From Escherichia coli (GTDB taxonomy: Bacteria; Pseudomonadota; Gammaproteobacteria; Enterobacterales; Enterobacteriaceae), in the NCBI RefSeq assembly GCF_036507355.1, contig NZ_AP027877.1: DNA of 64,000 bases; one strand, written 5' to 3'. The position numbers and the translations under genes are program-made. Below are positions 7,443 through 60,380 of this stretch, piece by piece (position 1 is the stretch's first letter; the number at the start of each line of letters is the position of its first letter). Under the pieces are notes generated by a model. It was given only the letters and a program-made list of their open reading frames with translations. It was not told the DNA's origin and searched no databases.

Positions 7443-8735
7443 TCACAGATACGGCGACCAGGCAGGGAATTTGACCTGTCCATCAGTTGCCGGAAGACGC
7501 GCTTTGAAACGCCCATCTGTAGAAACCAAATTCAGCACGGATCCCATCCCCTGAGAAGAGCTGTAGATTACCATAGTGCCGTTAGGTGCCAGACTTGGCG
7601 TTTCATCCAGGAACGTGGACGACAGAACTTGTACGCCTCCCGTTGCCAGATCTTGTTTGGCAATGTGCTGCTGCCCACCGTTGGAGCTGACCATTACCAT
7701 AAATTTACCGTCGCTGCTGACATCCGCATCCTGGTTCTGCGAACCTTCCCAGGTAATACGTTGTGGCGCACCGCCGTTGATATTCACTTTATAAACCTGT
7801 GGACGACCGGCCTGGTCAGAAGTAAATGCCAGGTTCTGGCTGTCCGGGAACCAGGTCGGTTCGGTATTGTTACTGCGACCATCAGTCACCTGGCGGATCT
7901 GACCAGAAGCCAAATCCATTACGTACAGGTTCAGGCTACCGGTTTTCGACAAGGCGAATGCCAGTTTGCTGCCGTCTGGCGAGAATGCAGGCGCACCGTT
8001 GTGACGCGGGAATGAAGCCACCTGACGTACAGCGCCGTTTGCCAGCGTTTGGATAACCAGCGCGGAACGACCGCTTTCGAAGGTCACATAAGCCAGTTTA
8101 GAACCGTCTGGTGACCACGCCGGGGACATCAGCGGCTGTGGTGAACGGTGAACGACAAACTGGTTGTAACCGTCATAGTCAGATACGCGCAGTTCATACG
8201 GGAACTGACCGCCGTTGGTCTGAACAACGTAGGCAATACGGGTACGGAACGCACCTTTAATACCGGTCAGTTTTTCAAACACTTCATCACTGGCGGTATG
8301 ACCAGCATAACGCAGCCACTGCTTGTTCACTTTGTACGCGTTCTGAGCAAGTACAGTACCCGGTGCGCCGCCAGTGTCAACAAGTTGATAAGCAACATTG
8401 TAAGAACCATCCGGATTCGGAGTGACCTGACCGACAACTACAGCGTCAATACCCAGCGCGGACCATGCAGCTGGTTGTACTTCCTGCGCACTACCCGGCT
8501 GCTGTGGCAGACGAGCGCGATCTAACGGATTAAATTTACCGCTGTTACGCAAGTCGGCAGCAACGATGCCGCCAATATCTTCAGGTGCCGCACCAGGGCC
8601 CGCCCACTGGAAAGGAACAACTCCAATAGGACGACCGGAATCTACACCGCTGTCGATCACAATGCGGACTTCAGCATGAAGAACTGATGCCCACAATATG
8701 AGAAAACCAAATGCTACTCGTAATGCCTGCTTCAT
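7443..8735 (-). CDS. tolB: Tol-Pal system periplasmic beta-propeller protein
   Basis: [26 protein letters not shown]... matches TolB (430 aa from the second Met). Confidence 0.95.
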
Positions 8736-54044: not shown

Positions 54045-54183
54045 ACCGATGCCTGATGCGACGCTTAACGCGTCTTATCAGGTCTACGTATTTCCTGCAA
54101 TTTATTGAATTTGCACAAATTTGTAGGCTGGATAAGGCGTTTACGCCGCATCCGGCATCTGGGCTCGATTGCCTGACGCGTCT
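54045..54183. repeat. REP/BIME palindromic repeat cluster between dtpD and phrB
   Basis: gcctgatgcgacgcttaacgcgtcttatcaggtctacg and related units. Confidence 0.7.
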
Positions 54184-54184
54184 G

Positions 54185-55603
54185 TTATTTCCCCTTCCGC
54201 GCCGCCTCATACGCTGCCAACGTTTGTACTCTCGCCTCTTTGTGATCGACTATCGGTTGCGGATAATCCAGCGTCACACCTGCTTTCTGCGCCCACTTCC
54301 ACGGCTCATGCACCGCTTTCCCCGGTACATTGCGCAGTTCCGGTAGCCACTGGCGGATAAACTCGCCTTCGCGGTCAAATTTCTCGCCCTGGGTTGTCGG
54401 GTTGAAAATACGAAAATACGGCGCTGCATCAGTACCCGTAGAAGCCGCCCACTGCCAGCCACCGTTATTGGCTGCCAAATCACCATCAATCAGCTGCGAC
54501 ATGAAATATCGCTCGCCTTCGCGCCAGTCGATCAACAAATCTTTCACCAGAAAACTGGCTGTAATCATCCGTAGCCTGTTATGCATCCAGCCAGTGCTAT
54601 TAAGCTGACGCATGGCAGCATCGACAATCGGGTATCCCGTTATGCCTTCCTGCCAGGCCTTTAAATGGGCGGGATTGCTTTGCCACTGTACACGATCCGT
54701 CCAGGCAATAAACGGACAATGTTTACACAACGAGGGGTAATATGTCATCAGATGACGGTAAAACTCGCGCCAGATCAGCTCATTAAGCCAGACACTACCG
54801 GCCCCACCGTCCAGCGCCTGCGGCTGTTCCGCCAACAGGCGATGCAAACACTGGCGAGGTGATAACCCGCCCGTTGCCAGGCTGGCGGACAAACGACTGG
54901 TGCCTTCCACTGCCGGAAAATCTCGTTGTTGCTCATATTCTCCGGCACCGTTCTGGCAAAACTGGCGTAATTGCGCAATCGCCGCTTTTTCTTCCACCGG
55001 GAAATGCGCAGTATCGAAAGACTGACGAGGATAATTCAGCGTAATGGATGGCGCGGGCTTTATCGATCCGCTACTACGAACTTTTGGTGCAGCGACGCAC
55101 TCCGGCATCCCTTCCCGCAGCCGTTTCAGCCAGGCATTCTTAAAAGGCGTAAAGACTTTGTACATCTCATGATTGCCGGTCATCACCGCGCCAGGCGGCA
55201 GGATCACGCTGTCATCAAATCCTTCACACACCACGTTACGCAGCGTTCTCTCAACCTGCACATCCCGCGCCCGCTCATTCACCTCATACTGATAGTTATA
55301 AAAAAGATGAGTAACGCTGTTTTCCGCGCACACCTGTTTAACTATTTCGACGCTGGCGGCAAAGTCATCCACTTCACGGAACAATAAAGGAATGCCTTTT
55401 TCCGCCAGCGCGATTTGTAGCCCGTTCAGTTGAGCATTGATAAGTTCAGCCTGACGCGGCGACATATTATGCGCCGCCCACTGGCGTGGTGTAGCGATAT
55501 ACAACGCCAGCACGCGTGCAGACGAATTGCGGCAGGCGGCAGCCAGCGCGAGATTATCGTGCAGACGTAAATCCTGGCGAAACCAGACCAGATGAGTAGT
55601 CAT
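54185..55603 (-). CDS. phrB: deoxyribodipyrimidine photolyase
   Basis: 472-aa ORF MTTHLVWFRQDLRLHDNLALAAAC... Confidence 0.95.
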   Translation of the reverse strand: MTTHLVWFRQDLRLHDNLALAAACRNSSARVLALYIATPRQWAAHNMSPRQAELINAQLNGLQIALAEKGIPLLFREVDDFAASVEIVKQVCAENSVTHLFYNYQYEVNERARDVQVERTLRNVVCEGFDDSVILPPGAVMTGNHEMYKVFTPFKNAWLKRLREGMPECVAAPKVRSSGSIKPAPSITLNYPRQSFDTAHFPVEEKAAIAQLRQFCQNGAGEYEQQRDFPAVEGTSRLSASLATGGLSPRQCLHRLLAEQPQALDGGAGSVWLNELIWREFYRHLMTYYPSLCKHCPFIAWTDRVQWQSNPAHLKAWQEGITGYPIVDAAMRQLNSTGWMHNRLRMITASFLVKDLLIDWREGERYFMSQLIDGDLAANNGGWQWAASTGTDAAPYFRIFNPTTQGEKFDREGEFIRQWLPELRNVPGKAVHEPWKWAQKAGVTLDYPQPIVDHKEARVQTLAAYEAARKGK

Positions 55604-56109
55604 AAAACTCCTGAATGGCGCAAGTTAATCACACGCGGCCAAAGTTCGAAATAACGCTGCCCTGAAAGCCAGGCGTCAGGATAAAGCGCCATATAGTGTT
55701 TGATACGCATCAGCGGCGCAAGAAGTGGTTGCTCGCCACGGCGATAACTGTCGATAAGCGCAGCCAGCTGCTGGCGTTCTGTGGAATCAATATGCGGGCG
55801 AAAATAACCCTGAACGTGCATCAAAACGTTGGTGTGATCGCGCGGGTTGGCGGGATGAGAAAGCAAAACAATTACGCGTTGGCGGTACTGGCTGTAAAAA
55901 TCATCCAGATTTTGCCACTGATGAATATCAGCCACAAACGGGCCAAGTTTGCGGTATTCCGGCTGAGAATGAGCCAGAAAGACGAGTTTATAGCGGCTGT
56001 GATAATCGAGAAGCGCCCCGCGCGTTAAGCCATGTTCTTTCAGTCGATGTAACTCATGAAGGGCGAAGATACGGATTAGGGTGCTGTCATCAAATCGTTG
56101 CTGATTCAT
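55600..56109 (-). CDS. ybgA: DUF1722-family protein YbgA
   Basis: 169-aa ORF overlapping the phrB start. Confidence 0.9.
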   Translation of the reverse strand: MNQQRFDDSTLIRIFALHELHRLKEHGLTRGALLDYHSRYKLVFLAHSQPEYRKLGPFVADIHQWQNLDDFYSQYRQRVIVLLSHPANPRDHTNVLMHVQGYFRPHIDSTERQQLAALIDSYRRGEQPLLAPLMRIKHYMALYPDAWLSGQRYFELWPRVINLRHSGVL

Positions 56110-56339
56110 TACTGCTCCTGAGATATTAACAGGAGTAAGTGTAGACGTTGGGAAATGATTTTTGTGAAGTTAATCCGCTAGCAGGGCAAGATTACGAAAG
56201 CGCGCTCCCCGCAAGCAACTCATCAAGGTAGTTAATCATGGCTTAACACGATATTACGCCAGAAGTCACCATTTCCAAAACACAGCGCCGCTATAAAGTC
56301 GGCTATGTCAGAGCCCGCCACATAAACAGCAAAACCTAC

Positions 56340-56567
56340 ATGACCACGTACTACTCACGACACCCCTGCCTGAACCTTAAGGGCGACTGGCTGAAAGAGG
56401 CCGGATTTGATACCGGGCGGGGTGTCACGGTGAAGATTTCGGAGGGGTGCCTGACCATTATCGCTGACAGTGACGAGGTGCAGGAGCTGCGGGAGGAACT
56501 TTATCAGGTTAAACAGGTGGTTAAGGGGATACGGAGCGGGATGTTTAGTGTGCTGGACGAGAGTTAA
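56340..56567 (+). CDS. SymE-family (type I toxin-antitoxin toxin-like, AbrB/SpoVT fold) protein homologue
   Basis: 75-aa ORF; HPCLNLKGDWLKEAGFDTGRGVTVKISEGCLTIIAD resembles the core of E. coli SymE ([35 protein letters not shown]). Confidence 0.65.
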   Translation: MTTYYSRHPCLNLKGDWLKEAGFDTGRGVTVKISEGCLTIIADSDEVQELREELYQVKQVVKGIRSGMFSVLDES

Positions 56568-56573
56568 ATAATA

Positions 56574-56612
56574 AAAAAGCCGGGAAGATGTTATTTTCTT
56601 CCCGGCTTTTTT
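56574..56612. terminator. bidirectional intrinsic terminator between the symE-like gene and the Rhs immunity gene
   Basis: aaaaagccgggaaga...tcttcccggctttttt hairpin flanked by A and T runs. Confidence 0.7.
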
Positions 56613-56904
56613 AAAGTTTATTTATAGCTTGGTTAATTTCAAATAATAATGAGACAATATCTTTCGCAGAACCATTATAAATGGGGGTATCCCAATCAAA
56701 GTCCTTTATTAAACAAATATAAAAATTCCCATTTAAATTAAAAGATGGTCGCCACCCAACATCCAAAAGATACCCACCAGGATATTCAACTTGGAGCATA
56801 TCTTCCTTAAGTTCATCTCGCTGTTCATTAAGAGGGATGCTTTGTTTCAGGGAGAAGTCATTAAAAATTACATTCCCTTTTTTTCCTAAGAAATCAATGT
56901 TCAT
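56611..56904 (-). CDS. putative Rhs toxin immunity protein
   Basis: 97-aa AT-rich ORF whose start overlaps the Rhs stop (ATGA), the classic position of Rhs immunity genes. Confidence 0.65.
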   Translation of the reverse strand: MNIDFLGKKGNVIFNDFSLKQSIPLNEQRDELKEDMLQVEYPGGYLLDVGWRPSFNLNGNFYICLIKDFDWDTPIYNGSAKDIVSLLFEINQAINKL

Positions 56905-58151
56905 GGTGTTGTTAGCCTTCGGAATTCATCAAGTGATATGGGATGTCCATGTATTGTCCCACCGCTAAGTTCAACTCGAACCCATTGAGATTCTTTACCC
57001 TCACTGGCCCCAATAACTTTCCCCATATCTTTTACTTTCCATGGTTTACCGTTGGTAACAGGTGTGCCTGTATTAAAAACATCGTATTCCAGCGTTTTAA
57101 TATCAATATCGGGAGAATATTTTGCCGGGCCTGATTTTGTTGATTTAATTATATCCTTCCATGATTTGTTTTTTGGAGGAAAATGTTTGTATCCATGATT
57201 TGTCCATTCAGGTTGCCCACACTTTAAACCTAACGGGTCGATCCACCCCAACGGATTCGGCGCGTATTGGTATAAATTTAATCCACCAAGCAGCCCTATC
57301 GGATCCGTTACCATGAACCGCCCGACATCCGGATCATAGTACCTGTGCAGATTGTAGTGCAGCCCCGTTTCCCTGTCGAGGTACTGTCCCTGGTAGCGCA
57401 GGTTCTGCTCCACCCTGCCGTGGTCCTTCTCCTGTATCGTGTTACCCCAGACCTGATACCCCGTCTCCCACACGATTCTCCCGTCGCTGTCCGTCATCTC
57501 TTCCGGCGCACCGTTCACATCCGTGTGAAAATACAGTATCCGGTTCGGGCCCTCTTTGCCTGCCTTATCCACCCGCGCCAGCGGTTCATAACTCCCCGGG
57601 TCCCTGTAGATGTACAGGCTGCCTGTTCCCTCCGGCCTGCTCTCCTGCGCCAGCCGCATTCCGTCCCATAAAAATTTTGTCCGGTTGTACGGTTTACCGT
57701 CAGGGCTGATGTGCTGTTTTTCCGTCCGCCTCCCCAGTGCATCGTACACATACCGGTATGCCCCCCGCGCTGTCGTCACTTCCACCATCCGGTGTTCCGC
57801 ATCATAACGGTAACTCTGCGTTCCGCTCCGGCCCTCCTTTTCCACCGCACGGCCAAATTCGTCATAACGGTAGTGCACACCACGGTAAGACATCAGCCGG
57901 TTGAACGGCACCACGCTGTTTTCTGCCGTGGCCCTTTCCCCCGCGCGCCTCCCCAGCAGGTTTCCCGCCGCGTCGTACTGCCAGCTCGCCAGATACCCCT
58001 CATCCTCCGAACGGCACGCCGTGATGCGCCCCGTGGGGTCGTAGAAGTAATCCGTTTCCCCCCGCCGGCTGTGCCGCGTCTTCAGCAGTTCATCCTCGCC
58101 ACTGTAGCTGTACTGCCGGTCCGTGAACGTCTCCGGTACCACCCCGCGCAT
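56901..58151 (-). CDS. Rhs protein C-terminal part: last YD repeats, DPxGL boundary motif and about 107-aa variable C-terminal toxin domain
   Basis: YD-repeat sequence, then DPIGLLGGLNLYQYAPNPLGWIDPLGL followed by an AT-rich divergent tail; in frame with the upstream Rhs ORF across a single TAG. Confidence 0.85.
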   Translation of the reverse strand: MRGVVPETFTDRQYSYSGEDELLKTRHSRRGETDYFYDPTGRITACRSEDEGYLASWQYDAAGNLLGRRAGERATAENSVVPFNRLMSYRGVHYRYDEFGRAVEKEGRSGTQSYRYDAEHRMVEVTTARGAYRYVYDALGRRTEKQHISPDGKPYNRTKFLWDGMRLAQESRPEGTGSLYIYRDPGSYEPLARVDKAGKEGPNRILYFHTDVNGAPEEMTDSDGRIVWETGYQVWGNTIQEKDHGRVEQNLRYQGQYLDRETGLHYNLHRYYDPDVGRFMVTDPIGLLGGLNLYQYAPNPLGWIDPLGLKCGQPEWTNHGYKHFPPKNKSWKDIIKSTKSGPAKYSPDIDIKTLEYDVFNTGTPVTNGKPWKVKDMGKVIGASEGKESQWVRVELSGGTIHGHPISLDEFRRLTTP

Positions 58152-58220: not shown

Positions 58221-60380
58221 CTAGCTTCTGAGCACCTCACGGTGCAGGTGGTCGCGCGTGAACTCGCTGATGACCTCCCGGTCCAGATTTATCTGCTGGA
58301 GATGGCCGCTGCCGTAGTACAGATGGCGCTGCGTTCTGCCGTCCGGAAAGGTGGTGGCAGTCCGGTTGCCCAGTTCATCGTACTGGTGGGTCAGGATGCC
58401 CTGCGCCGTCTCCTCGCTCAGCATCCGCCCCAGTCTGTCGTAGCTGAAGCAGATAACTTCCGGCGCGTCAGTTTCGTGCCGCTGGCGGCGGATTTCACCG
58501 CCCCGGTCCCCGGTGAACACCACTTCCGTGACCGCGTTCAGCGCGTTGTAGCGGTACGACTGGCGGCAGCCGTCCGGATTTATCTGCTCCGCCAGACGGT
58601 CCAGCACGTCATGGCGGAACCGGTAGCGTTCTCCGTTCTCGTTCGTGAGCGTGACCAGACGCCCGTAAGCGTCGTACCCGAACGCCGTCCTGCGCCCCAT
58701 CGCGTCCGTCCGGCTGCGCACCCGGCCCTGCCCGTCCCGCTGCCAGCGCGTTATCCTCCCCATCGGGCTGGTGTACTTCACCAGACTGCCCGCCGCGTCT
58801 GACTGGTAATTCACCGTGCGGCCGTCCGCCAGTATCACCTCCGTCAGATGACCGCTGTCGTCATACCCGTAGCGCGTGCTGTGGCTCTCCGCATCCGTCA
58901 TTCTGATAAGCCGCGTGCGTTCGTCGTAGAACCACGCCGTCTGCGAGCCGGAGCAGTCCGTGTGCCGCATGAGCTGCCCGTCTTCATTCCACTGGAGGTG
59001 TTTATTCCCCCCGCGCGCATCCGTTATCTGCACCACCTGGCCGTGGTGGTCATACTGATACCGGGTGTTCTGCTGCAGCGGGTCGGTCACGGCAAGAAGG
59101 TTGCCGCGTTCATCGTACACACAGCGCCAGGTGTTTCCCGCCGCGTCCACCTCCGTTTCCGGCTGGTGCCACACCGGGTGCCACTGTGTCTGCGCCACCC
59201 GCCCCAGCGGGTCGTGCGTCTCCGTGATATGCCCCTGCCGGTCATACACATAGCGCCATTTGCCGCCCTGAGGGTCGGTCATCCCCAGCAACAGTCGTTC
59301 TTCGTCGCTCCAGCGGAATGTCGTCACCTGTCCGGCTTCGTCCTGGTACGCCGTCACCTGATTCTGCGCATCCCACTGGTGATAACGTGTGCGCCCCAGT
59401 CCGTCCGTCACGCACAGCCTGCGCTGCGCCAGGTCCCACGCCAGCCGGTACTGTTCACCGCTGTCCGTGTGGTGCCCCGTCACCCGCCATGCCGCGTCAT
59501 CCGGACCGTCATACCAGCCCCACTGGTAATAATACCCTTCGCCGCCCGGCTGGCGGTGCAGCGTCATGCAGTGGTTTTCGTCGTAAGCAAACTCACGCAG
59601 CAGGTGCCCCGTGCTGTCGTACACGCCGTTCAGGTGGCCGGCCTCGTCATAGCTGTAACGACGCAGCAGTAAAGGTGCAGTCTCAGGGAAATGCTGATAA
59701 ATCTGTGTCACCCGCCGGGGATGCGCCGCCAGTTCGTAATACAGACGGATGCACGGACGCTGCTGTTCGCCGCTGATTTCCACAATGCGGCCCCGGTCGT
59801 CGTAGTACAGATTCAGACAGTTGCTGTTACGGTCGCCCAGCATTTTCAGCCGCTGGCGCTGCGGGTGGTGCGGGTCGCCTTCAAACAACCAGTGGATACC
59901 ATCATCGCTGCTGATAAGCCAGTGCCCCTGCTCACCACGCCTTACCGCCAGCCCTTCACCGGGGCTGTAAAACCCGCCCCCCGGCAGTACGGCTTCCATA
60001 TCCAGGCGTCGCCCCATACCCGACACAAAGGTCATGCAGTTTTCGTCTGCGCCACCCGGCAATACAAATGCCACCTGACACTGGTACACCTGCTCGTTAT
60101 CACGGAGAAACTGGCTCTGTATTTCCAGCCCTTGTTCACCGTCATTAATCCCTACCCGTGTTACCTGAACTGGCGTGTAGTGAAGATCCTTTACCTGTTT
60201 CTCCAGTTTTTTCATTTGCTGTTCAATCTGGGAGGCTAATTCGTCTCCTTCCTGCATCTGGCCCCGACTGATAATGAGTGCAGCGTCGGGATCGCTGAGG
60301 CGCAGCATATTAATAGTGCTGTCCTGAATAATATTCCCGGGAAAAGTTACAACAGTTTCATTGAGATAATACTCCGTCAT
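58221..60380 (-). CDS. Rhs repeat protein, N-terminal and core part (terminated by an in-frame amber codon)
   Basis: 719-aa GC-rich ORF with many YD/RHS repeats; collinear with the K-12 RhsC core but with a different first ~110 aa; AGGA ribosome-binding site upstream of the ATG. Confidence 0.85.
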   Translation of the reverse strand: MTEYYLNETVVTFPGNIIQDSTINMLRLSDPDAALIISRGQMQEGDELASQIEQQMKKLEKQVKDLHYTPVQVTRVGINDGEQGLEIQSQFLRDNEQVYQCQVAFVLPGGADENCMTFVSGMGRRLDMEAVLPGGGFYSPGEGLAVRRGEQGHWLISSDDGIHWLFEGDPHHPQRQRLKMLGDRNSNCLNLYYDDRGRIVEISGEQQRPCIRLYYELAAHPRRVTQIYQHFPETAPLLLRRYSYDEAGHLNGVYDSTGHLLREFAYDENHCMTLHRQPGGEGYYYQWGWYDGPDDAAWRVTGHHTDSGEQYRLAWDLAQRRLCVTDGLGRTRYHQWDAQNQVTAYQDEAGQVTTFRWSDEERLLLGMTDPQGGKWRYVYDRQGHITETHDPLGRVAQTQWHPVWHQPETEVDAAGNTWRCVYDERGNLLAVTDPLQQNTRYQYDHHGQVVQITDARGGNKHLQWNEDGQLMRHTDCSGSQTAWFYDERTRLIRMTDAESHSTRYGYDDSGHLTEVILADGRTVNYQSDAAGSLVKYTSPMGRITRWQRDGQGRVRSRTDAMGRRTAFGYDAYGRLVTLTNENGERYRFRHDVLDRLAEQINPDGCRQSYRYNALNAVTEVVFTGDRGGEIRRQRHETDAPEVICFSYDRLGRMLSEETAQGILTHQYDELGNRTATTFPDGRTQRHLYYGSGHLQQINLDREVISEFTRDHLHREVLRS

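Follow-up and report, generated by a model that had tools for sequence, protein, structure and literature searches.

A 75-codon open reading frame (ORF) on an Escherichia coli chromosome, beside fragments of an Rhs gene, resembles SymE and raises the question of whether a shortened toxin is made there and whether an antisense RNA controls it, as would befit a relative of symE/symR, the type I toxin-antitoxin module of E. coli K-12 (Kawano, Aravind and Storz 2007, PMC1891008). The ORF lies at positions 56340-56567 of the 64,000-nucleotide stretch that we analyzed (contig NZ_AP027877.1), called the window below. The explanation that we favor, and consider likely, is that it belongs to a nonsense-inactivated allele of a 109-codon SymE-family gene, which sits at the end of an Rhs cassette and would be controlled by antisense RNA in intact alleles.

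A SymE-family gene interrupted at codon 3

The initial annotation took the ORF for a SymE homolog, and this assignment is confirmed. The 75-amino-acid product matches the Pfam SymE_toxin model (PF08845) with 54.3 bits (E 1.5e-14, model positions 17-53) and the NCBIfam SymE model with 46.4 bits (E 3e-12), and it shares 45% identity over 69 residues with K-12 SymE (E 1e-15; K-12 sequence from the annotated record), including the LKGxWLxxAGFxTGxxVxVKxxEGC core. These scores place the similarity far above chance. The same annotation held that the protein lacks the N-terminal ~35 residues of SymE, which proved incorrect, as the following features show.

56238-56567, plus strand: full SymE-family gene of 109 codons plus stop, inactivated in the window strain; tblastn of the repaired protein covers 56238-56564
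56225-56231, plus strand: Shine-Dalgarno sequence AAGGTAG, read from the sequence, serving ATG 56238
56244-56246, plus strand: premature stop TAA at codon 3, GAA in intact alleles, from alignment with the SCU-113 and PapRG-06-5 alleles
56340-56567, plus strand: 75-codon ORF, ATG to TAA, beginning at internal Met35 of the full gene

The frame upstream of ATG 56340 is open back to the TAA at 56244-56246, and the codons for the N terminus are found in frame at 56238-56339; read from 56247, they translate as ...HDITPEVTISKTQRRYKVGYVRARHINSKTY-M.... The 56110-56340 interval, described earlier as lying between ybgA and the ORF, comprises 128 bp of true intergenic DNA and, after it, codons 1-34 of the gene. 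Searching proteins with the translation from stop to stop, we obtained 352 homologs, mostly of 103-109 amino acids, that cover 100% of the query and begin with MAEHDITPEV...SKTQRRYKVGYV, and the coding sequences annotated by the Prokaryotic Genome Annotation Pipeline (PGAP) in sister alleles are 330 nt long, with their start at the equivalent of 56238. When the stop is repaired, the 109-amino-acid protein matches PF08845 with 69.9 bits (E 2e-19) over model positions 1-53 of 54 (residues 16-75), whereas the 75-amino-acid form is without the first 16 positions of the domain, including an RRxKVGY motif that K-12 SymE also has. In a full-length alignment, K-12 SymE is collinear with the family from residue 1, including the RxxxVGY motif, so the subfamily is not without the SymE N terminus. 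We read no purine-rich Shine-Dalgarno sequence ahead of ATG 56340, and its methionine, replaced by A, L, V or I in many homologs, is not conserved in the family. The AGG/GGAG core of the Shine-Dalgarno sequence that serves ATG 56238 is kept in every copy having the conserved 5′ block described below.

DNA alignment locates the lesion precisely. The window reads ATG GCT TAA at 56238-56246, while both SCU-113 copies and the PapRG-06-5 allele, which is nearly identical to that of the window and encodes an intact 109-amino-acid gene, read ATG GCT GAA. Among 5426 complete E. coli genomes, 487 match the region 56100-56620, and the 60-mer bearing the TAA is found identical in only 4, with 114 more at one to three mismatches, a rarity that one would expect if the gene had lost its function recently. 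In the broken alleles, PGAP resorts to ATT starts at differing codons (codon 6 in XJ34, codon 12 in GF3-3), and the use of two different starts indicates that no proper start codon is left in them. The window allele is thus a recent loss-of-function allele and its 75-amino-acid “short SymE” an artifact of ORF calling. A G-to-T change would have turned codon 3 into TAA, so that little or no protein is expected to be made, and the 75-codon ORF would be the stretch left open after the first internal ATG.

Over codons 41-70 of intact copies, pairwise differences amount to 0.093, 0.097 and 0.267 at codon positions 1, 2 and 3, a pattern that marks a real protein gene under purifying selection. Many SymE-like copies of other genomes are broken too: two carry a 1-nt deletion near codon 20 (loci L013 and L014, both at 8001-8296), one has an in-frame TAG (L010, about 8001-8240), and in GF3-3 (L024, 6024-6314) the same codon-3 TAA is joined to a different middle segment. 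Such cases suggest recurrent inactivation of SymE-like genes.

From these alignments and scores, the gene is assigned to a distinct SymE subfamily (AbrB superfamily, PF08845) and is not an orthologue of K-12 symE. The 132-bit equivalog cutoff of NCBIfam NF010128 is reached neither by the 75-amino-acid ORF (46.4 bits) nor by a 106-amino-acid translation (50.4 bits). The SymE family has been derived from AbrB/MazE DNA binders (Kawano 2007, PMC1891008). An AlphaFold2 monomer model (mean predicted local distance difference test score 55.5) has a strand-helix-strand order compatible with an AbrB-like fold and is too weak for a fold search; a sequence search returned no PDB relative of the SymE-like protein, and PADLOC gave no match for it.

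Opposite-strand homology to IsrA and Ssr1, and a symR-like promoter position

For SymE genes without a transcription-factor gene nearby, control by a small RNA (sRNA) was predicted by Kawano et al. (PMC1891008). The initial annotation likewise expected an antisense RNA, to be encoded in the 56110-56340 interval. An antisense RNA does appear plausible, given an Rfam isrA match and a promoter-like element at the symR position. Its proposed placement was not upheld, as the isrA-homologous stretch lies inside the gene and not in the ybgA-proximal interval, and similarity to symR itself was absent. The relevant features are the following.

56309-56437, minus strand: Rfam isrA (RF01385) match lying opposite codons 24-67 (112.9 bits, E 5.5e-26; gathering score 51)
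56268-56608, minus strand: partial, sub-threshold match to Rfam Ssr1 (RF02627); 85 bits against a gathering score of 820
56226-56290: 5′ block of high conservation, spanning roughly -12 to +53 with respect to ATG 56238
56251-56278, minus strand: predicted symR-type antisense promoter, with -35 TTGGAA (56278-56273), a 16-nt spacer and -10 TAATAT (56256-56251)
56572-56613, both strands: bidirectional intrinsic terminator common to the SymE-like gene and the convergent immunity gene, with a 17-bp stem and T runs on both strands

The isrA match covers the full model (positions 1-129 of 129) and recurs at the equivalent place in the ORF (about +72 to +200), in at least 20 copies from seven other genera and Salmonella, with scores of 51-141 bits in the Citrobacter, Yersinia, Kosakonia, Enterobacter, Atlantibacter, Erwinia and Salmonella copies. 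When the Rfam isrA consensus is reverse-complemented and translated by hand, it yields MTTCYSQIPSLHLKGDW..., a SymE core, which means that the isrA family is defined on the strand opposite SymE-like genes. IsrA is a 423-nt sRNA encoded in a Salmonella island, SPI-6 (Salmonella pathogenicity island 6) of Salmonella Typhimurium, where it is cis-antisense to STM0294.1n and inversely expressed; its published coordinates in LT2 are 339338-339760 (Padalon-Brauch et al. 2008, PMC2330248). In later reviews, STM0294.1n is still a protein with “no clear function.” A Typhimurium-type locus has the order main Rhs, immunity, orphan WHH-type C-terminal (CT) domain, immunity and convergent 87-amino-acid SymE-like gene. 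Counting 423 nt back from the sole minus-strand terminator in this Typhimurium-type locus, not in LT2, we estimate that IsrA begins 2 nt after the stop codon of the SymE-like gene, at the base of the hairpin that forms the shared terminator. Our literature search found no paper that links IsrA with the SymE family or names it a SymE antitoxin. The E. coli RNA IS061/McaS, also named IsrA, is unrelated and was set aside. As a conserved promoter we also considered a -10-like GATAAT that lies a little before the start of the isrA model, and rejected it, as it varies between copies.

The Ssr1 match is partial, 364 positions of the model being absent from it, and its aligned part runs from the terminator across nearly the whole SymE-like gene. 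Ssr1 of Shigella flexneri 301 was detected by northern blot and 5′-RACE (rapid amplification of cDNA ends) and has its map position between SF0268, which is an Rhs-family gene, and SF0269 (Wang et al. 2016, PMC4782007). The new point that emerges is modest: IsrA, and probably Ssr1, are antisense partners of Rhs-linked SymE genes. On the minus strand of the window, we also noted a promoter-like TTGAAA-16-TAAACT at 56615-56642, just upstream of the terminator hairpin, from which an RNA start near 56608 would be expected; the Ssr1 model begins aligning at 56608, and the element, which lies in AT-rich cassette-specific DNA, may be due to chance.

A second, shorter RNA is suggested by the 5′ end of the gene. 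The 5′ block is nearly invariant in the Escherichia, Citrobacter and Yersinia copies and is also present in the Erwinia copy, while beyond -15, further upstream, the DNA of different contexts is not related. At third codon positions, divergence is 0.089 for codons 1-18 and 0.27-0.41 in the codons after them; the synonymous divergence of the block is thus 3-4 times below that of the rest of the gene, and neither strand of it forms a stable RNA fold. Such low divergence could reflect an embedded antisense promoter or recombination. The TAATAT hexamer, at +14 to +19 of the ORF, occupies the exact position of the K-12 symR -10 (TAGAAT), from which SymR starts at +6 according to the K-12 annotated record. 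Variant copies have ATTCTA, that is, TAGAAT on the antisense strand, and the hexamer varies at positions 3 and 4 only. The -10 of symR is the site of a promoter-down mutation made by Kawano (CATTCT to CACTCC; PMC1891008). The window element would be a symR-type promoter with a start near 56243, and the RNA predicted from it would extend over both the Shine-Dalgarno sequence and the start codon.

The comparison with symE and symR that had been proposed thus gave two answers. The protein aligns with SymE, and no sequence similarity to symR was detected: the Rfam symR model (RF01809), which finds K-12 SymR at 95.3 bits as a positive control, has no match in 55500-57200 at E up to 10, and blastn against the K-12 symE/symR region returned chance words only, with no nucleotide similarity. 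A LexA-box search upstream had also been proposed, and SOS control was not borne out by it: 55900-56700 has no LexA box and no CTG-N10-CAG motif, and the best match there to the LexA 20-mer consensus is 12/20. A perfect inverted repeat, CTCCTG-N9-CAGGAG at 56115-56135 over the ybgA ribosome-binding site, looks like a LexA box at first glance and has a spacing of 9 nt, not 10; it is retained in SCU-113 with an altered loop.

These elements can be combined as follows. The subfamily forms the outer end-piece of Rhs CT-toxin/immunity cassettes in Enterobacterales and is transcribed convergently to the immunity gene. By analogy with SymE, its intact product would be a small nucleic-acid-binding protein that is harmful when made in excess, and its synthesis would be restrained by RNA transcribed from the other strand, which may take either or both of two forms. 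The first would be a long IsrA-type transcript, entering from the terminator side and covering the gene, as in Salmonella (IsrA) and probably Shigella (Ssr1). The second would be a short symR-type RNA from a promoter in codons 5-14, reaching over the Shine-Dalgarno sequence and the start codon. Of this picture, the family assignment, the limits of the gene, the nonsense mutation, the homology to isrA and the link with Rhs are demonstrated, while toxicity, repression by antisense RNA, use of the promoter and loss of translation are inferences.

Several observations weigh against this explanation. The isrA structure has no covariation support among 19 copies (73.7% of cells can pair, against 73.8% in shuffles; covariation score 0.093, against 0.099), and the lack of compensatory changes means that the match shows homology with an antisense-RNA-making locus, not a structured RNA. 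The match could be driven wholly by coding conservation, as the stretch encodes the most conserved motif of the protein. No region folds better than shuffled sequence, whether the 5′ block on either strand, the isrA stretch or the putative short antisense RNA (z 0 to 0.9). The predicted antisense promoter agrees with the consensus at 8 of 12 positions, under the 9/12 threshold of our sigma-70 scan, and is unreported by it; the scan found no site of at least 9/12 near the gene on either strand, the only such sites being in AT-rich DNA beside the terminator. There is no minus-strand terminator between the SymE-like gene and ybgA, which leaves the end point of any antisense RNA undefined. As to the mutant allele, ribosomes that terminate at codon 3 may reinitiate at a low level, at ATT 56253 or ATG 56340.

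Several of these findings would also fit a locus with no functionally important antisense RNA, where the isrA and Ssr1 matches are SymE-domain coding conservation seen on the other strand and the gene is otherwise controlled or silent. The isrA model coincides with codons 24-67, the most conserved segment of the protein, its structure lacks compensatory changes, no folding z-score is below 0, and the GATAAT upstream of its start is not conserved. However, IsrA was detected experimentally with an expression inverse to that of the gene it overlaps (PMC2330248), Ssr1 was seen by northern blot and 5′-RACE beside an Rhs gene (PMC4782007), and in the 5′ block synonymous sites are 3-4 times more conserved, with a promoter-like element at the symR position. 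We regard an absence of functionally important antisense RNA as unlikely, and retain the SymE-like gene with its opposite-strand RNA as the preferred reading.

Linkage of the subfamily to Rhs cassettes

The window lies on the E. coli chromosome, with the gene order ybgI, dtpD, phrB, ybgA, SymE-like gene, 97-amino-acid ORF, Rhs fragments, ybfA and kdp. The SymE-like gene is on the plus strand; ybgA (start codon at 56109), the 97-amino-acid ORF and the Rhs fragments are on the minus strand. The interval from ybfA to ybgA is a variable RhsC-type Rhs locus, in which we distinguish three further ORFs.

56611-56904, minus strand: 97-amino-acid ORF, putative Rhs immunity protein, directly after the Rhs CT and overlapping its stop
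56901-58151, minus strand: Rhs C-terminal ORF of 416 amino acids, with RHS repeats, the core end PLGWIDPLGL and a CT domain without a family
58221-60380, minus strand: DcrB/DUF1795 N terminus fused in frame to RHS repeats, 719 amino acids, with Pfam DcrB at residues 18-108 and 10 RHS repeats

The 416-amino-acid ORF matches TIGR03696 at 100 bits and RHS_core, as well as Pfam RHS and RHS_repeat, and its core ends in PxxxxDPxGL, after which come a variable CT and, further downstream, a small ORF, which is the arrangement of an Rhs cassette. The initial annotation had seen here a hotspot for toxin-type modules beside an Rhs toxin/immunity pair, and that view is supported, the hotspot being the RhsC-type locus. 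No Pfam, NCBIfam or PADLOC family was found for either the CT domain or the 97-amino-acid ORF, which PGAP annotates as hypothetical and whose presumed immunity role follows from its position alone. Upstream in the Rhs gene, a stop at 58221 ends the DcrB::Rhs fusion, and the core end and CT are carried by the separate 416-amino-acid ORF. Comparison with the intact PapRG-06-5 element fits a reading of the 719-amino-acid ORF as a deletion remnant of a chaperone gene and the main Rhs gene; what PapRG-06-5 has and the window is missing are the Rhs N terminus and the main CT/immunity/SymE unit, and no intact full-length deliverable Rhs protein was found in it.

We examined the neighborhood of 49 copies of the subfamily, drawn from E. 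coli, Salmonella and 19 loci of other Enterobacterales. The results show a convergent Rhs core end within 1.6 kb in 46 of the 49, at 614-1274 nt beyond the stop codon (median 759). As for the remaining three, two run off the contig and one has another SymE fragment in between. Nearly all copies keep the terminator at their 3′ end. When the window is compared with GF3-3, homology extends through the SymE gene to 56606, is broken over the CT and immunity genes, and is back at the Rhs core at 57225, so that the variable cassette spans 56607-57224. Inner copies within arrays have lost their 5′ ends and directly adjoin Rhs cores that are themselves truncated. Two different SymE middle types are found behind one and the same rare 5′ block with the TAA, which implies recombination within the SymE-like gene.

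Two loci of the survey deserve separate description. In the metagenome-assembled genome of Enterobacteriaceae bacterium UBA5654 (L017, 1-10600), about nine tandem units occupy 10.5 kb; in each, the minus strand carries an Rhs core end, a CT and an immunity gene and the plus strand a 5′-truncated SymE-like fragment, and each SymE fragment abuts the next truncated Rhs core. The second SymE-like copy of SCU-113 (L002, 10216-15900) follows a helix-turn-helix gene and lies by a DNA primase and a XerC-type recombinase, which is the cHTH-SymE / Prim-Hel neighborhood of Kawano 2007; it keeps the 5′ block and is followed by an Rhs core remnant.

This organization is also what one would see if the SymE-like unit mattered mainly as DNA, providing together with the Rhs core conserved flanks for CT/immunity exchange or stacking, with coding secondary. 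Every cassette examined ends in a SymE-like unit, the truncated inner copies, the GF3-3 breakpoints and the recombinant TAA-bearing block all accord with such a role, and many copies are pseudogenes through nonsense mutation, frameshift or truncation. Against coding being secondary stand the codon-position pattern of purifying selection in intact copies and the conservation of a 100-residue domain protein across genera. A role mainly as DNA seems to us unlikely, although it is compatible with the toxin/antisense reading and not exclusive of it.

A further alternative concerns the protein itself, which might be not a toxin but an AbrB-type DNA-binding or nucleoid-associated regulator of the adjacent Rhs locus. 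Its strict linkage to Rhs cassettes and its derivation from AbrB/MazE DNA binders would suit this, as would the present RefSeq name of K-12 SymE, “nucleoid-associated protein SymE.” Frequent pseudogenization and embedded antisense elements, however, fit a product that is costly to express, and we hold a non-toxic regulator to be unlikely. That the window still makes a functional, N-terminally shortened toxin, by reinitiation at ATT 56253 (104 amino acids) or an independent start at ATG 56340 (75 amino acids), is very unlikely, for although the shorter form retains PF08845 positions 17-53, some annotated homologs start at about residue 12 (MSKTQRR..., 92-98 amino acids), so that the first 11 residues may be dispensable, and PGAP annotates a 104-amino-acid product in XJ34, it would have neither a Shine-Dalgarno sequence nor a conserved Met at ATG 56340, the 75-amino-acid form is without the RRxKVGY motif among its first 16 missing domain positions, the differing ATT starts are annotation rescue and not evidence, and an allele found in 4 of 5426 genomes fits recent loss of function.

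Significance and comparison with known systems

For the window itself, the result carries little weight: the module is of a known kind and already annotated, and here it is a pseudogene allele, broken and beside a decayed Rhs gene. The Rhs neighborhood of SymE genes is not new either, since Kawano et al. (2007, PMC1891008) drew SymE genes beside haemagglutinin and RHS genes, and later genome papers place them by orphan hcp genes, contact-dependent growth inhibition (CDI) clusters and a type VI secretion system (T6SS) ADP-ribosyltransferase effector locus. Several papers noted these neighbors only in passing. What we consider modest but worth recording is the linkage at the level of cassettes, the subfamily being tied cassette by cassette to Rhs CT/immunity modules in the sample examined, and the connection with IsrA and Ssr1. 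IsrA, which is a curated sRNA family, is located on the strand opposite toxin genes of the SymE family, and Ssr1 probably is likewise, while the papers on both RNAs treat the overlapped or neighboring gene as uncharacterized. This offers a hypothesis for the roles of IsrA and Ssr1 and for the recurrence of SymE-like genes beside Rhs, CDI and T6SS effector loci.

A broader extension is put forward tentatively, as we hold it to be less likely than not. The SymE-like gene and its antisense RNA might be an integral, conserved end-piece of Rhs (perhaps also CDI) cassettes throughout Enterobacterales, with IsrA and Ssr1 being one antisense RNA under two names that arises from or runs through the shared terminator; transcription of the cassette would then silence the SymE-type toxin, and the unit would either protect cassettes from deletion or serve as a distal homology arm when they are exchanged. 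If true, IsrA and Ssr1, sRNAs with reported stress and virulence phenotypes, would be re-explained as antitoxin RNAs of Rhs-linked type I modules.

Elsewhere in the window, an Rfam match to the sRNA ES036 (CssrF) was found in the dtpD-phrB interval (54080-54122, minus strand; 70.5 bits against a gathering score of 37.6), and it recurs at the homologous position in other E. coli strains (loci L023 and L024).

Compared with the symE/symR system of K-12, the window gene belongs to the same protein family (33% identity overall, 45% in the core), and has a 9-residue insertion after the VGY motif. Both K-12 symE and the window copy are without an adjoining transcription-factor gene. They differ in location, the window gene lying at an Rhs cassette end and K-12 symE in the hsd/mcr region, and in that K-12 symE has a canonical LexA box (TACTGATGATATATACAGGT) upstream, which the window gene does not.

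The second comparison is with Rhs main/orphan CT-immunity arrays, which Koskiniemi et al. (2014) reportedly studied at the Salmonella rhs locus. The arrays and the loci examined here alike have a PxxxxDPxGL core end, a variable CT, a small immunity gene and orphan modules stacked downstream. In searchable descriptions of such arrays, the convergent SymE-like gene is not treated as part of the repeating unit. Unlike them, the Rhs gene of the window is decayed, with a DcrB::Rhs fusion and two separate ORFs.

Of the two sRNAs, Ssr1 of S. flexneri adjoins an Rhs-family gene and a hypothetical gene, and its relation to the window is one of shared sequence, not of demonstrated identity. The IsrA/STM0294.1n pair of Salmonella differs from the window at the 5′ end of the gene, which encodes 87 amino acids and has neither the MAEHDITPEV block nor a symR-type promoter, but its context is that of the window: the gene runs convergently to an orphan CT/immunity pair of Rhs and ends in the same conserved terminator.

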